From: Planctomycetota bacterium | GTDB lineage: Bacteria; Planctomycetota; UBA1135; UBA2386 | Assembly: GCA_965228735.1 (NCBI GenBank) | Contig: OZ245838.1 | Coordinates: 2,144,001 to 2,208,000 of the forward strand | Length of the DNA stretch: 64,000 nt | Reading direction: 5' to 3' | In this document: in pieces, positions 25,786 through 32,513 of the stretch | How the letters are laid out: each line of letters begins with the position of its first letter | Numbering within the stretch: position 1 is the stretch's first letter | Notes under the pieces: generated by a model | Told to the model about the DNA's origin: nothing | The model's input: the letters and a program-made list of their open reading frames with translations, nothing else | Databases searched by the model: none | Program-made: the position numbers and the translations under genes

Positions 25786-27102
25786 ATGACGGACACCGTA
25801 CCCGAAGAATCCCCCAGCTCGATCGACCCCACGGCACTGCTCAGCGGCGAGATGACTCCGCCGCGTCTCGAGGAGTTCAAGACCGCGGTCTTCCAGAACG
25901 TGAACACGGTCGAGAGCCTGCGTGACTGGCTCGGCAGCCCGATGGCGCGCGGCACGAGCCGCGGCTTCGCCGTGTGGGCGCTCGGCCGTCACAACGAGGC
26001 GGTCGAACTGCTGGCGGGCGAGAAGAGCAATTCTGCCGCGGCGCTGTGCCTGGCGACGAGCCACGCCGCGCTCGGCGATCTCGATGCAGTCGAGGCCGTC
26101 CTGCCCAACCGCAAGACCGACGCCGCGCAGGCGCTGGCGTGGCTGCGCGCGCTCGACCAGGCCGCGGACGGCGAACGCCTCGCGAGCGAACTCGAGGCGC
26201 TGAAGGCGCACCTCGGTGAGCCGGATCAGAAGTACTTCACGGGCCGCGTGCACGAGCTCAACCACGAGAACGAGGCCGCGATCGCGTGCTACGACGACGT
26301 GCTCGCGCTCGACGAGAGCCACAAGCACGCGCTGTTCCGCCTCGCGGTCAACGTCGATCTGCGCGGCGAGGACGAGGAGGCGCGCGAGCTCTACGAGCGC
26401 GCGCTCATGGCGCCGCCCGTCAACGTCGCGTGCGTGATGAACCTCGGCATCCTCTACGAGGACATCGGCAACTACCGCCGCGCGATGCAGTGCTTCGACC
26501 TCGCGTTGCAGGCCGACCCCGAGAACGCGCGCGCGCGCCTCTACCGTCGTGACGCAGCCGCCGCGCTCAACATGTACTACGACGAGGACCAGGAGCGCCG
26601 CGACGACAAGCGCAACAAGCTCCTGCGGACCCCGATCAACGACTTCGAGCTGTCGGTGCGGTCGCGCAACTGCCTCGCGAAGATGAGCATCCGCACGCTC
26701 GGTGACCTCGTGAAGAAGACCGAGGCCGAGCTGCTGAGCTACAAGAACTTCGGCGAGACGTCGCTCAACGAGATCAAGGAGATCCTCAAGAACAAGGGCC
26801 TCCGCCTCGGCATGACGGCCGACGAACTCATGAACCGCGATCTCGGTGTCGAGGACGCGCCGGCCGTTGCGCCGGAAGAGGCCCCGGACCCGAACAGCCC
26901 CGACCCGACGCGCCGCCCGATCACGGAGCTCGACCTGTCGGTTCGCAGCCGCCGCATCGTCGATCTGCTCAAGATCCGCACGATCGGCGACCTGTCGAAC
27001 AAGACGGAGGCCGAACTCCTCGCGTGCCCGAACTTCGGCCAGACCTCGCTGAACGAGATCAAGACGAAGCTCGACGAGTTCGGCCTCAGCCTCCGCGGCT
27101 GA
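25786..27102 (+). CDS. TPR protein with two RNA polymerase alpha C-terminal domains
   Basis: TPR helices followed by FELSVRSRNCL..KNFGETSLNEIK and LDLSVRSRRIV..PNFGQTSLNEIK; no alpha-NTD. Confidence 0.88.
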   Translation: MTDTVPEESPSSIDPTALLSGEMTPPRLEEFKTAVFQNVNTVESLRDWLGSPMARGTSRGFAVWALGRHNEAVELLAGEKSNSAAALCLATSHAALGDLDAVEAVLPNRKTDAAQALAWLRALDQAADGERLASELEALKAHLGEPDQKYFTGRVHELNHENEAAIACYDDVLALDESHKHALFRLAVNVDLRGEDEEARELYERALMAPPVNVACVMNLGILYEDIGNYRRAMQCFDLALQADPENARARLYRRDAAAALNMYYDEDQERRDDKRNKLLRTPINDFELSVRSRNCLAKMSIRTLGDLVKKTEAELLSYKNFGETSLNEIKEILKNKGLRLGMTADELMNRDLGVEDAPAVAPEEAPDPNSPDPTRRPITELDLSVRSRRIVDLLKIRTIGDLSNKTEAELLACPNFGQTSLNEIKTKLDEFGLSLRG

Positions 27103-27141: not shown

Positions 27142-29133
27142 TTGCGCCAGGCGAAGCCTGGACGGGAGAAATCATGACCTGACAGGAATGAGAACCCCGT
27201 ATTGGAGTCCCGCGGGTGACGAAACCCGCCCGGCGAAGGCTAGCCACCAGCCGGAAGCGAGTCTTGCGTGGCGACCGGGTAACCGCCGCTGCGAAGCGTA
27301 GACAGCGAGGATGTGGGCGGCGCGACTGAGCCCCGAAAGTACCGACAGCGAGAGAGCCGACGTGGTGGGTTCATCGGAAGGCAACATGGAAGGGCCGCAA
27401 CCGGCTTGGCCCGGAAGTCTCTCCGGGGTCCTGAGAACGACCGCACGCATCCATCGGACTCCCCAGGAACCTGGGATCCCCTCGATTGGTCCGATCGTCA
27501 ACTCCGGCTGGGGCCCGGAAACCAACTCTCCAGGGCCGCGACGTCGTGTCCGCGTCGGTGCCGTCAAGGAATCCGGACACACGGCCGGTACCGCCGAGCG
27601 AAGGAAACGAAGCGACGCGGGACGCCAACGAGGGAGTCGGAGTGCGTCATAGTACCAAAGAGTCCGGGGAACCCGCCCCACGGGGACCCGGCGGAGGGAA
27701 GGGCGTCACCGGCGACAAGGAACCGCTGGACGGACCGACCACGGAGACGACGGGCTCCGAGCAGGTCTCCACGAAACTCCGGCGGGTAGCGGAGCTGGCG
27801 AGGCAGCGACCAGACCTGGTCCTGACCACACTGGCACACCACATGGACATCGCGCTTCTGCGGGAGGCGTATCGCCGCACGCAGAAGTCCAAAGCTCCTG
27901 GTGTCGACGGCGTCACGGCTCGCGACTACGAGCAGGATCTCGAGGGCAACCTCGCGGACCTGCACGAACGCGCGAAGTCAGGGCGCTATCGCGCACCACC
28001 GGTCCGGCGCGTGCACATCCCGAAAGGGAAGGGTGGCACGCGTCCAATCGGAGTGCCGACGCTGGAGGACAAGGTCTTGCAGCGGGCGGTGACGCAAGTG
28101 ATGGAGGCGGTATATGAGCAGGACTTCTTGGACTGCTCGCACGGCTTCCGTCCCGGTCGCTCGCCGCACACGGCACTGGAATCGCTTTGGAAGCATGCGA
28201 TGTCGATGGGTGGCGGCTGGCTGTTGGAAGTCGACATCCAAGGTTTCTTCGACAACCTGGAGCCGACCCATCTGCGAGCGATCCTCGACCAGCGGGTGCG
28301 CGACGGAGTGTTCCGTCGACTGATCGACAAGTGGCTGAAGGCGGGGGTGCAGGAGGACGGTGCGCTGCATCGCTCTCGCAAAGGCACCCCACAAGGAGGC
28401 GTGATTTCGCCGCTGCTGGCGAACATCTATTTGCACGCAGTGCTGGACCGTTGGTTTGTCGAGGAAGTCAAGCCGAGGCTTGCCGGTCGCGCGGAGTTGG
28501 TCCGCTATGCGGACGACTTCGTGATCCTGTTTGCCGTCGAAGCCGATGCACGTGCGATGTCGTCGATCCTGGCCCAAAGGCTCGGGCGCTTCGGCCTCAC
28601 ACTGCATCCGGACAAGACCCGGTTAGTCCGCTTCCAACCGCCCGAAGACGGCGCGGCGGGGAGCGGCACTTTCGACTTCCTGGGCTTCACCCATCACTGG
28701 TCACGCTCCCGGCGCGGCCGATGGACCGTGCAGCGGCGCACCACACGACACGTCGTGACCCGTACCCTGACTGGGCTACGGGATTGGTGCCGTCGCAATC
28801 GGCACGACAAGGTCCGCGTCCAGTACTCCACCCTGTGCTCGAAGCTACGGGGGCACTACCTCTACTTCGGCGTGACCGGCAACTCTGCTGCGTTACGTCG
28901 CGTATGGTACGAGGCCCGTCGCATCTGGCATCGGTGGCTGAGCCGGCGCTCGCGGGCGGCCTACATGTCGTGGGCCCGCTTCGAGCAACTGCTGCGTGCA
29001 TACCCGCTTCCTCCGCCCCGGCTGACCCGGTCGGTCTACGCAGCGAGCCCTTGTCGCTGACGAGCCGGATGCGTTAGCCGCGCACGTCCGGATCTGTGGG
29101 AGCCCTGGGGGGAGACCCCCAGGGCCACCCGGC
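27142..29133 (+). mobile_element. Group II intron (IIB-like, EBS1+EBS2), full length
   Basis: 5' TTGCG; EBS2 gtaccg 27339-27344; EBS1 gggttc 27367-27372; domain V gagccggatgcg..cacgtccggatc near 29063-29094; domain VI ending acccggc at 29133. Removing the intron reconstitutes a REP arm. Confidence 0.93.
27726..29060 (+). CDS. ltrA: Group II intron reverse transcriptase/maturase without endonuclease domain (start uncertain; frame open from 27486)
   Basis: APGVDG, RRVHIPK, RPIGVPTLED, GFRPGRS, GTPQGGVISPLLANIYL, RYADDF, FDFLGF, X domain LRGHYLYFG. Confidence 0.93.
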   Translation: MDGPTTETTGSEQVSTKLRRVAELARQRPDLVLTTLAHHMDIALLREAYRRTQKSKAPGVDGVTARDYEQDLEGNLADLHERAKSGRYRAPPVRRVHIPKGKGGTRPIGVPTLEDKVLQRAVTQVMEAVYEQDFLDCSHGFRPGRSPHTALESLWKHAMSMGGGWLLEVDIQGFFDNLEPTHLRAILDQRVRDGVFRRLIDKWLKAGVQEDGALHRSRKGTPQGGVISPLLANIYLHAVLDRWFVEEVKPRLAGRAELVRYADDFVILFAVEADARAMSSILAQRLGRFGLTLHPDKTRLVRFQPPEDGAAGSGTFDFLGFTHHWSRSRRGRWTVQRRTTRHVVTRTLTGLRDWCRRNRHDKVRVQYSTLCSKLRGHYLYFGVTGNSAALRRVWYEARRIWHRWLSRRSRAAYMSWARFEQLLRAYPLPPPRLTRSVYAASPCR

Positions 29134-29882: not shown

Positions 29883-30959
29883 ATGCGAGTCCCCCATGTC
29901 GCCATCGCCTTCGCGGCGACCCTGCCGTTCGCCGATGCCGCCGCGGCCCAGTCGCCGTGGCAGTTCCTGCAGAAGAAGTACGACAAGGACGGCGACTCGG
30001 CGGTGACACCCGCGGAGTACGACCGCGGCGCCGATCGCTTCGCCAAACTCGACCGCAACGCGGACGGCAGGATCACGGCCAGCGACTTCGAGAAGGAAGC
30101 CGACGGCGGCCCACCGAGGGGCTACATGCTGCGACTGTGGAGTCAGCTCGGGCGCACCGCCGACCTGAACCACGACGGCCAGGTGCCGCCCGCCGAGTGG
30201 CGCACGTTCGTCGGCGGACTCCCGACCGGCGACGACGGCGTGCTCGGCAAGACGGCGCTGCCGTTCTTGCAGAACACGCAGGGGATCGCCCGTCGCGCGC
30301 CGCGTATGTTCGACGCCGACAAGGACGGCGACCTCACGCCGGACGACCTCGACGCGTTGTTCGGCCGGCTCGACGTGAACGGCGACGGCACGCTGCAGCG
30401 CGCCGAACTCGGCACGCATCCGATCGTCGGCGAGCTGGCGCCCGACTTCGAACTGCCGCTCCTGTCCGACACGAAGACGAAGGTGCGCCTGTCGAGCTTC
30501 CGCGGCAAGCAACCGGTCGGGCTGATCTTCGGCTCCTATACCTGACCCCCGTTCCGCAGCTCGGCCGGTCGGCTGAGGCAGACGCATCGACGGTTCGGCA
30601 AAGATGCCGCGATCTTCGTCGTCTACGTCAAGGAAGCGCATGCGCTCGACAGCGACTGGCCGATGGAGTTCGGCAACATCGAGGACCCGACCAACCTCGC
30701 GGAGCGCGCGGCCGTCGCGAGTACGTGCATGGCCGATCTCGAGCTGCCGATGCCCGCCCTCATCGACGAGCTCGACGACGAGATCGCGACCACGTATGGC
30801 GCCCTGCCCGATCGGCTCTACGTAATCGGCAAGGACGGCAGGGTGACCTATGCCGGTGGCCAGGGGCCGTTCCTGTTCGACCCGGGCGCGTTCGACCGCG
30901 CGCTGGCGCGGGCCGTTGCGGCCAACGAGAAGACGGTCAGCGAGCGAAGGGACCGTTGA
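29883..30959 (+). CDS. EF-hand + iodothyronine deiodinase-like selenoprotein (Sec at TGA 30543-30545)
   Basis: Reading through the TGA gives LIFGSYT-U-PPF...VYVKEAH..DW...YGALPDRLYVI, joining ORFs 29883..30545 and 30663..30959 in one frame. Confidence 0.9.
30556..30579 (+). promoter_or_regulatory. Bacterial SECIS-like hairpin
   Basis: ctcggcc-GGTC-ggctgag 7-bp stem (one G-U pair); loop begins 21 nt after the UGA. Confidence 0.75.
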
Positions 30960-31010: not shown

Positions 31011-32513
31011 ATGCCACTTCTTCGCACCTGCACTCTCGCCACCTCGCTGGCCGCTCTCCTCACCGTTCCCGCCACCGCCCAGGGTGACGAGTGCAGCAAC
31101 GCGCTGCCCGTCACCGTCGGCACGTACGGCCCGTTCGACTCCACGAGCGCGACGACGTCGCAGCCGGCGTGGGGCTGCGCCTCCGGCGGCAACGACCTCT
31201 GGTTCGTCGCGCTCGCGAACGCCAACGGCTCGGCGACGTTCGACACGTGCGGCAGCGGCTTCGACACGTGCATCGAGGTCTTCGACGGCACGGCCGGCTG
31301 CACCAACCTGACGAGCATCGCGTGCAACGACGACTCGTGCGGCACGCGCTCGAGCGCGACCGTTGCGGTCACGGCGGGTCAGCAGCTCTACGTTCGCGTC
31401 GGGGGCTGGAACAGCCGCGCCGGCGCGTTCGTCCTCAACGTCAGCGGCGACATCGGCCCGGAGACGAGCCTCGCGACCGCCCTGGACTACGGCGCCGGCT
31501 GCTACCAGGAACGCGCCACGTTCTACGAGCACATCAACGACCCGGCGAACTTCGACCTGTCGATGTCGTCGTTCACGATGCTGGCCACGGGCACGGGCGG
31601 CTACACGGTCATCGCGGGTATCGCGCCGTTCGTGCAGCCGACGCCGAACGCCGTCAACCTCGGCATGGGCGACGACACGCAGTCGACGCAGACGCTGACG
31701 ACGCCGTTCCCGCACGCGGGCACGACGCTCTCGTCGCTGGTCGTCTACTCCAACGGCTTCGTCGCGACGGGTTCGAGCAACGCGACGCTCGGCACGATCG
31801 TCACCAACAACTTCTTCGACGAGCCCGACGCCGCGTGGCGCAACTGGCACGACTACGATCCGTCGACCGGCGGCCAGGTCACCTTCGAGGAGATCGGCAC
31901 GACGGCCTACTTCACGTGGACCGACGTCCCGGACTGGAACGTGCCGGGCAGCATGAGCACGTTCCAGTTCCAGTTCGACTCGGCGACGGGGAACGTGACC
32001 TACGCGTTCGAGCAGATGAGCCTCACGGGCAGCGGCGGCGGCGGCAACGGCCACATCGTCGGCTACTCGCCGGGCGGCATCTCGCTGCGCCCGGCCGAGC
32101 TCGACCTCAGCACGGCGCTGCTCGCCTCGATCTCGGTCGACGCCGCCGACGGTCAGGAGCTCACGCTGTCCGCCGACGCGCGGCCGCTGCTCGGCTCGTC
32201 GATCAACGTCGTGACGCTCGACGTGCCGGCCACGGCGGCGCTCGGCGTGCAGATCTTCGGCCTCAACCAGGTCAACCCGGGGACGGACCTCGCGGCGTTC
32301 GGCATGGCCGGCTGCCGGCAGTACCTGAGCACGGACGCGAGCGGCATCCTCGTCCCGGTCGGCGGCACCGCGTCGTGGCCCGTGAACACCCCGACGTCCG
32401 CCACGTTCGCCGGCGTCGCGATCTTCGCGCAGTCGCTGATGCTGGTTCCGGGCGTCAACCCGTTCGGCGCCCTCACGAGCAACGGCGTCACGCTGCGCTT
32501 CGACGTCAATTAG
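31011..32513 (+). CDS. Secreted protein with Cys-containing N-terminal domain and conserved C-terminal module
   Basis: Signal peptide (PATAQ); DECSNA, FDT..V..G..C....ACNDDSCG; C-terminal FGMAGC...FAQS...NPFG..SNG. Confidence 0.8.
   Translation: MPLLRTCTLATSLAALLTVPATAQGDECSNALPVTVGTYGPFDSTSATTSQPAWGCASGGNDLWFVALANANGSATFDTCGSGFDTCIEVFDGTAGCTNLTSIACNDDSCGTRSSATVAVTAGQQLYVRVGGWNSRAGAFVLNVSGDIGPETSLATALDYGAGCYQERATFYEHINDPANFDLSMSSFTMLATGTGGYTVIAGIAPFVQPTPNAVNLGMGDDTQSTQTLTTPFPHAGTTLSSLVVYSNGFVATGSSNATLGTIVTNNFFDEPDAAWRNWHDYDPSTGGQVTFEEIGTTAYFTWTDVPDWNVPGSMSTFQFQFDSATGNVTYAFEQMSLTGSGGGGNGHIVGYSPGGISLRPAELDLSTALLASISVDAADGQELTLSADARPLLGSSINVVTLDVPATAALGVQIFGLNQVNPGTDLAAFGMAGCRQYLSTDASGILVPVGGTASWPVNTPTSATFAGVAIFAQSLMLVPGVNPFGALTSNGVTLRFDVN

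Follow-up and report, generated by a model that had tools for sequence, protein, structure and literature searches.

Does a TGA in the middle of a planctomycete gene end the protein, or does it add a residue to it? The question is raised by a gene on the forward strand of the window, by which we mean the whole stretch of 64,000 nucleotides analysed here, taken from a Planctomycetota bacterium (assembly GCA_965228735.1, contig OZ245838.1, positions 2,144,001 to 2,208,000). From its ATG at 29883 to its TGA at 30957-30959, the gene forms one frame with a sole internal stop, the TGA at 30543-30545 in the context FGSYT-TGA-PPF. The original prediction, made from the DNA letters, had joined the two open reading frames (ORFs) at this place into one frame broken only by this codon, in FGSYT-U-PPF, and its coordinates were confirmed, while its structural interpretation held on every point. 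Our answer is that this is almost certainly a real selenoprotein gene, in which the internal TGA is predicted to encode selenocysteine (Sec). For the locus as a whole we propose a single gene with Sec at the TGA, whose 358-residue product would be a likely exported redox enzyme made up of five EF-hands and a deiodinase-like domain and working by the catalytic cycle set out below; this larger proposal is held with moderate confidence, because the catalytic cycle and the substrate are its weaker part.

The TGA as a predicted selenocysteine codon

The window is GC-rich and rich in long open frames, including one of 1433 aa on the opposite strand, and since such frames are common in GC-rich DNA, the reading frame alone proves little. 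What makes one gene of the two ORFs is the match to the Pfam family T4_deiodinase (PF00837; 77.2 bits against a cut-off of 27, E 1.5e-21), which spans residues 182-334 and thereby crosses the TGA at codon 221. The two motifs that had been read 3' of the TGA, VYVKEAH..DW and YGALPDRLYVI, are both present, and in the whole-genome search the window gene was matched with one TGA. ORF calling with translation table 11 splits the gene into a 220-aa ORF at 29883-30545 and a downstream piece. Standard annotation has done what had been anticipated of it, as entry P0002 of the protein collection is the window product, annotated as an 'EF-hand' protein of 220 aa ending in FGSYT.

The original prediction had pointed to selA, selB, selC and selD as the genes to look for, and all of them were found in the genome, which was examined as one contig of 7.19 Mb. 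The tRNA-Sec scored 76.6 bits (cut-off 47) and was assigned the anticodon TCA by ARAGORN, while selA (454 bits), selB (337 bits) and selD (367 bits) all lie above their curated cut-offs. The selA and selD genes are adjacent (G000:C1:121367-123694; loci L009 and L018). One in-frame TGA was also seen within selD, so that SelD itself is presumably a Sec-containing protein.

An interchange of Cys and TGA at residue 221 had likewise been proposed as a check, and it is displayed by the homologues. Among the 120 homologues listed, 84 carry Cys in this column and 30, including the window's own product P0002, end exactly before it at ...GSYT; the remaining six show Ser (three), Trp (two; P0037 and P0050) or Leu (one), with P0003, P0006, P0041 and P0043 as the other members of this set. 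The two Trp entries may be cases of TGA called as W under another code. When 401 genomes of the phylum were searched in six frames, 121 gave a match; an in-frame TGA is present in all but eight of the phylum matches listed, and one of those eight covers the EF-hand part only. For closer comparison we used 31 loci, namely the window gene, a paralogue in the same genome and 29 loci from other genomes of the phylum. Here the TGA stands at the same codon in 31/31, in the context GS[YFHC]T-TGA-[PG][PN]F.

The paralogue (G000:C1:2538524-2539495; L022) is 45% identical to the window gene and reveals an identical architecture of EF-hands followed by a deiodinase-like domain. It keeps the same TGA codon, the GGUC hairpin described below and the conserved Cys.

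An error of sequencing or assembly at the TGA, or its decoding as a standard residue (such as Trp or Cys, through near-cognate suppression), is hardly credible. Such readings could appeal to the two homologues with Trp and the three with Ser at this column, but they have to face the TGA in all 31 loci and the sequencing runs, in which the codon was reproduced. Four runs from four studies, all of near-identical strains and chosen with the run flagged as a possible source of the assembly excluded, each gave one contig across the gene and no difference at 30543-30545; the single difference among them was an A>G at 29919 in one run. Moreover, TGA terminates the window gene and many of its relatives, so the genetic code is standard.

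The hairpin downstream of the TGA

Bacterial genes of this kind carry their selenocysteine insertion sequence (SECIS) just 3' of the UGA. According to published accounts, the spacing between the UGA and the apical loop is 16-37 nt (PMC10778597), and the apical loop is small and contains a G (PMC1088965). A stem-loop with a GGUC loop 21 nt downstream of the TGA had been noted from the letters, and it was found at 30560-30577. Its stem of 7 bp pairs 30560-30566 with 30571-30577 around the loop at 30567-30570, the stem beginning 14 nt and the loop 21 nt after the UGA. Thus, the hairpin agrees with the published descriptions both in its spacing, with 21 nt lying within 16-37 nt, and in the G of its small loop.

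Two results weigh against the hairpin as a SECIS. A 68-nt stretch folds no better than its shuffles (z +0.42, with 125 of 200 shuffles at least as stable), and an Rfam scan of 30400-30800 with E values up to 10 gave no hits, so that no curated RNA family covers the hairpin. The 22-nt hairpin on its own reaches -12 kcal/mol (z -2.29), which is moderately unusual, as 8 of 200 shuffles were at least as good. The single-sequence evidence for the hairpin is therefore weak and, the fold of the 68 nt being indistinct from that of shuffles, we relied on comparative evidence.

This comparison, over the 31 loci, argues strongly for the hairpin. Its positions are paired in 91.2% of cells, compared with 11-48% when the partner is slid, and changes on both sides were seen in five of the seven stem pairs (17 cells). 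The covariation score was reached by none of 500 shuffles, and the same helix was recovered independently by RNAalifold. The hairpin lies within coding sequence, and the peptide that it encodes provides a further view of the constraint. Residues 227-231, S-A-G-R-L, are kept in 26, 30, 30, 29 and 31 of the 31 Sec forms, respectively, where the synonymous positions of these codons are also near-invariant. The 84 Cys forms are variable in this region, their commonest sequence being REMPAV (18/84). Cys forms need no SECIS, and because they do not keep the SAGRL peptide, the constraint acts on the RNA.

From these conserved parts, decoding can be pictured as follows. SelB, loaded with Sec-tRNA(Sec), would attach to the hairpin and bring Sec to codon 221, and a failure of Sec insertion would stop translation and leave an EF-hand fragment of 220 residues.

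A shorter product of this kind would be the only one if the TGA were a true stop, that is, if the gene encoded a secreted EF-hand protein of 220 residues with a remnant behind it, either decayed or expressed separately. Gene callers do report P0002 and 29 other truncated entries among the homologues listed, and the genuine terminator of the gene is TGA as well. Nevertheless, we judge a true stop to be very improbable. It would leave the thioredoxin fold with no more than its first core strand, the PF00837 match running on to residue 334; the catalytic residues downstream are invariant in all 31 loci; and the break falls at the same codon in these loci and in nearly all listed matches across the 121 genomes. 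The covarying hairpin 3' of the TGA and the complete Sec machinery speak against it, too. On the same grounds, namely the 31 TGA loci, the hairpin, the machinery and the four runs, readings of the gene as a pseudogene, an assembly error or a non-Sec gene were rejected.

An EF-hand protein with a deiodinase-like domain

The features of the gene are collected in Table 1.

Table 1. Features of the predicted selenoprotein gene, in window coordinates.
Feature	Positions	Strand	Basis or remark
Whole gene	29883..30959	+	358 codons plus terminal TGA; internal TGA predicted to be Sec, residue 221
Signal-peptide-like N-terminus, about residues 1-22, MRVPHVAIAFAATLPFADAAAA then QS	29883..29948	+	Hydropathy; putative cleavage site
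EF-hand region, five 12-residue loops	29982..30407	+	Pfam and loop pattern scan
Deiodinase-like thioredoxin-fold domain, residues 182-334	30426..30884	+	PF00837, PDB matches, Foldseek
Active-site and relay residues S218, T220, U221, Y248, E251, H253	30534..30641	+	Alignment to Dio3 and Dio2
TGA predicted to encode Sec (U221), FGSYT-U-PPF	30543..30545	+	Cys/TGA interchange, 31/31 loci, four runs
SECIS-like hairpin CUCGGCC-GGUC-GGCUGAG	30560..30577	+	Fold, conservation, covariation; within codons for S-A-G-R-L
Cys282, only other cysteine, candidate resolving Cys	30726..30728	+	Conservation
Arg311 in PDRLYVI	30813..30815	+	Invariant in 84/84 Cys forms and 31/31 Sec forms; aligned to ERLYVI of Dio3

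The N-terminal part is in line with the earlier claim of a signal peptide and at least five EF-hand-like loops, since a signal-peptide-like start and five canonical loops were found. The start is basic, then hydrophobic (maximum Kyte-Doolittle hydropathy 2.02), and then continues into AAAA-QS; in the structure model described below, the predicted local distance difference test (pLDDT) score is about 50 for residues 1-20. A basic-then-hydrophobic start was seen in 33/33 proteins inspected, the window protein included, three of them with a lipobox-like Cys, and export of the protein is therefore likely. The case for export is weakened in that the call of a signal peptide was made from hydropathy and homology.

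The pattern scan placed the canonical EF-hand loops at residues 34-45, 57-68, 94-105, 144-155 and 164-175, with acidic ligands at positions 1, 3, 5 and 12. Pfam matches to EF-hand_5 (59.4 bits), EF-hand_1 (52.1), EF-hand_6 (48.6) and EF-hand_7 (40.9) are all above their cut-offs. The same order, with EF-hand domains above cut-off ahead of the TGA, was seen in 27 of the remaining 30 Sec-form loci; of the other three, one has a sub-threshold match, one has a short N-terminus and one is cut by a contig end. NCBIfam matches to lanmodulin and XopAW were set aside as generic EF-hand similarity, both being sub-threshold with 29 bits where the cut-offs are 135 and 120. As the protein would sit outside the cytoplasm, its EF-hands would more probably hold Ca2+ at all times, in a structural role, than serve as the regulatory switch that the original prediction had thought possible.

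Behind the EF-hands follows the domain that had been called iodothyronine-deiodinase-like, a description now borne out by Pfam, by sequence matches in the Protein Data Bank (PDB) and by the fold. Besides PF00837, the Pfam families AhpC-TSA (PF00578; 39.1 bits, cut-off 26) and Redoxin (33.7 bits) match above cut-off. The sequence matches mouse deiodinase Dio3 (4TR3) with E 1.6e-13 and Dio2 (9H48) with E 1.8e-11, and the alignment passes through the Dio-specific insertion with small gaps only. An AlphaFold2 model built from 64 sequences displayed a mean pLDDT of 91.1 and a predicted TM-score (pTM) of 0.87. In a Foldseek search, its top two matches were 4tr3 (E 2.1e-12, TM-score on target 0.76) and 9h48 (0.78), and oxidoreductases of the ResA/DsbE/TlpA type and 1-Cys peroxiredoxins came next.

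Around the Sec of Dio2, a proton relay made up of Ser, Thr, Tyr, Glu and two His residues has been described (PMC11592359). Five of these six residues are present here at the Dio offsets, namely S218, T220, Y248, E251 and H253. The last three are invariant in 84/84 Cys forms and 31/31 Sec forms, and S218 and T220 are invariant or nearly so. At the position of the proximal Cys of the deiodinases the window protein has Tyr219, and their distal Cys aligns to a gap or to a residue other than Cys. Apart from the Sec/Cys position 221, the window protein has a single cysteine, C282, which is kept in 30 of the 31 Sec forms and in 73 of the 84 Cys forms. Arg311 probably corresponds to the active-site arginine that is conserved in the peroxiredoxin/deiodinase core.

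For the protein as an exported redox enzyme, these residues suggest a cycle. After export, the protein would act outside the cytoplasm, where the selenolate of Sec221 may attack an electrophilic atom of a small substrate. In our judgement, this atom would most likely be a peroxide oxygen, with the halogen of a halophenol in second place. Protons for the leaving group would come through the network of Ser218, Thr220, Tyr248, Glu251 and His253 that is shared with the animal deiodinases. Cys282 would then resolve the oxidised selenium to a selenenyl-sulfide, and an extracytoplasmic thiol pathway that draws on a membrane protein of the DsbD/CcdA type might reduce this bond again. One DsbD_TM gene (90.2 bits) was found in the genome.

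Peroxide or a similar oxidant is ranked first because the peroxiredoxin-like core and Arg311 are kept, the Dio substrate clamp is absent and Cys forms are many. The same selenoprotein could be a reductive dehalogenase, the function put first in the original prediction. Its Sec221 would then remove a halogen, formally as X+, from an extracellular iodo- or bromo-phenolic compound, the resulting carbanion being protonated via the Ser/Thr/Tyr/Glu/His relay and the selenenyl halide being resolved by thiols. We regard this chemistry as possible but doubtful, and retain it because the deiodinase-specific EAH insertion, which aligns with small gaps only, has been kept. Dio3 and Dio2 are the best matches in sequence and in structure, ahead of any peroxiredoxin or ResA, and 77.2 bits for PF00837 exceed the 39.1 bits for AhpC-TSA. 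Of the six residues in the deiodinase relay, five occur here and are invariant, and that Sec is strongly preferred to Cys in the phylum would fit a chemistry in which selenium matters.

Several features weigh against a reaction of the deiodinase type. The residue of the substrate clamp, which binds the thyronine carboxylate (Dio3 Arg275, Dio2 Lys241), is Gln327 in the window protein and varies among relatives (Arg, Pro, Gln or Lys); Pro is found opposite the second relay His (Dio2 His182), and the proximal Cys is replaced, as described above. Natural Cys forms are many (84 of the 120 homologues listed), dehalogenation or aromatic-catabolism genes are not conserved as neighbours in flanks of about 1.5 kb at 30 loci, and our search of a literature collection turned up neither a functional study nor an assay of any bacterial deiodinase-like member. 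The redox cycle that we prefer has its own difficulties. In the alignments to Dio2 and Dio3, Cys282 does not fall on their distal Cys. Peroxiredoxins carry the motif PxxxTxxC plus a conserved Arg. Here Ser218 occupies the Thr position and Arg311 is invariant, but Leu214 occupies the Pro position, which speaks against a peroxiredoxin-type reaction. Finally, when 79 flanking ORFs were compared with Pfam, no neighbour gene of any kind was conserved across the 30 related loci, and genomic context therefore gives no functional help. That the EF-hand selenoproteins in general are extracellular Ca2+-dependent dehalogenases of natural iodo- and bromo-phenolics, counterparts and possibly ancestors of the thyroid deiodinases, seems unlikely to us.

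A gene of the fructosamine kinase family adjoins the selenoprotein gene in three of these 30 loci only (L027, L042 and L046). This linkage probably reflects kinship and not function, because two of the loci share genus g90 and all three belong to family f14.

Relatives, surrounding DNA and meaning

That bacterial deiodinase-like selenoproteins were already known had been stated correctly. They were described in 2005, together with Cys homologues, from Sargasso Sea data and were credited with 'possibly a redox function' (Zhang, Fomenko and Gladyshev, Genome Biol 6:R37, PMC1088965), and the same account expects no thyroid hormone substrate in bacteria. The form fused to EF-hands was published in 2021 (Genomics Proteomics Bioinformatics 19:958, Figure 2B, PMC9402790), with a remark on additional conserved Cys residues of unknown function. 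A 2026 review lists the family without a function and without mention of the EF-hands (PMC13188914). Like this family, the window gene has a PF00837 domain, whose active site holds Sec or Cys, and a SECIS-like hairpin directly after the UGA, with a G in a small loop. As far as the published descriptions extend, no essential difference was seen, and the window gene is a further member. It is, in fact, a mis-annotated member of a published family, known since 2005 and in its EF-hand fusion since 2021. As far as these accounts could be compared, the GGUC loop imposing SAGRL, the frequency of 121/401 genomes, the mapping of the relay and the conserved Cys282 may go beyond them.

The NCBIfam model NF038285 (deiodinase_rel) has the same two-part architecture of EF-hands and deiodinase-like domain. 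The window protein scored 212.9 bits, which is below the cut-off of 250 and tells against its membership, and it matched positions 164-342 of 347. Its EF-hand part is a poor fit, and its Sec takes the place of the Cys found in the named members. End-to-end matches to this model were given by P0021 (492 bits) and P0023 (538 bits), both of them Cys-type proteins with EF-hand Pfam domains.

With the animal deiodinases Dio1-3 (PF00837; 4TR3, 9H48), the window protein has in common FGS-x-T-U-PPF, the offsets of Ser, Thr, Tyr, Glu and His, and a thioredoxin fold with a peroxiredoxin-like module. They differ at the N-terminus, where the animal enzymes have a membrane anchor and the window protein a signal-peptide-like start and EF-hands. 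They differ, too, in the SECIS, which is of the bacterial, in-frame type here whereas that of the animal genes lies in the 3' untranslated region, and in the changes already described at the proximal and distal Cys, the Arg/Lys clamp and the second relay His. ResA/TlpA/DsbE, Bcp and AhpE are likewise redox proteins with an exported thioredoxin fold, with TM-scores on target of 0.71-0.87. Unlike them, the window protein has no CxxC, carries a single Sec followed by PPF and contains the EAH insertion, and identity is 14-21%.

The surrounding DNA displays some features of its own. A group II intron lies between a gene with tetratricopeptide repeats (TPR) and ruvA, at 27221-29060 of the window (+). 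The Rfam family RF02005 (group-II-D1D4-6) matches at 27221-27439 with 123.5 bits, and 3' of this match a 524-aa ORF at 27486-29060 (+) carries a reverse-transcriptase domain (RVT_1, E 3e-32). The TPR gene, at 25786-27102 (+), encodes a protein of 438 aa with two PF03118 stretches (139.6 bits) besides its repeats, and the combination of TPR with an RNA polymerase alpha C-terminal domain (PF03118) in a stand-alone protein is an unusual architecture. Directly downstream of the selenoprotein gene, a 500-aa ORF at 31011-32513 (+) begins in a signal-peptide-like manner with MPLLRTCTLATSLAALLTVPATAQG; it gave no Pfam match at E up to 1e-5. In sequencing runs labelled coral, macroalgae, algae or aquatic metagenome, the shares of words found were 0.09-0.43, from which no conclusion about habitat is drawn.

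For the phylum, these results mean that a common selenoprotein family is systematically truncated by gene callers, since at least 30 entries (P0002 included) among the 120 homologues listed end at ...GSYT and nearly all listed matches in the 121 genomes carry the TGA. The GGUC hairpin, Cys282 and the retained deiodinase relay offer concrete handles for a first biochemistry of this family, and the function of its bacterial members bears on the origin of the animal deiodinases. Should the dehalogenase reading prove true, these proteins would be the first selenium-dependent dehalogenases in bacteria, present in about three in ten of the sampled genomes of the phylum.

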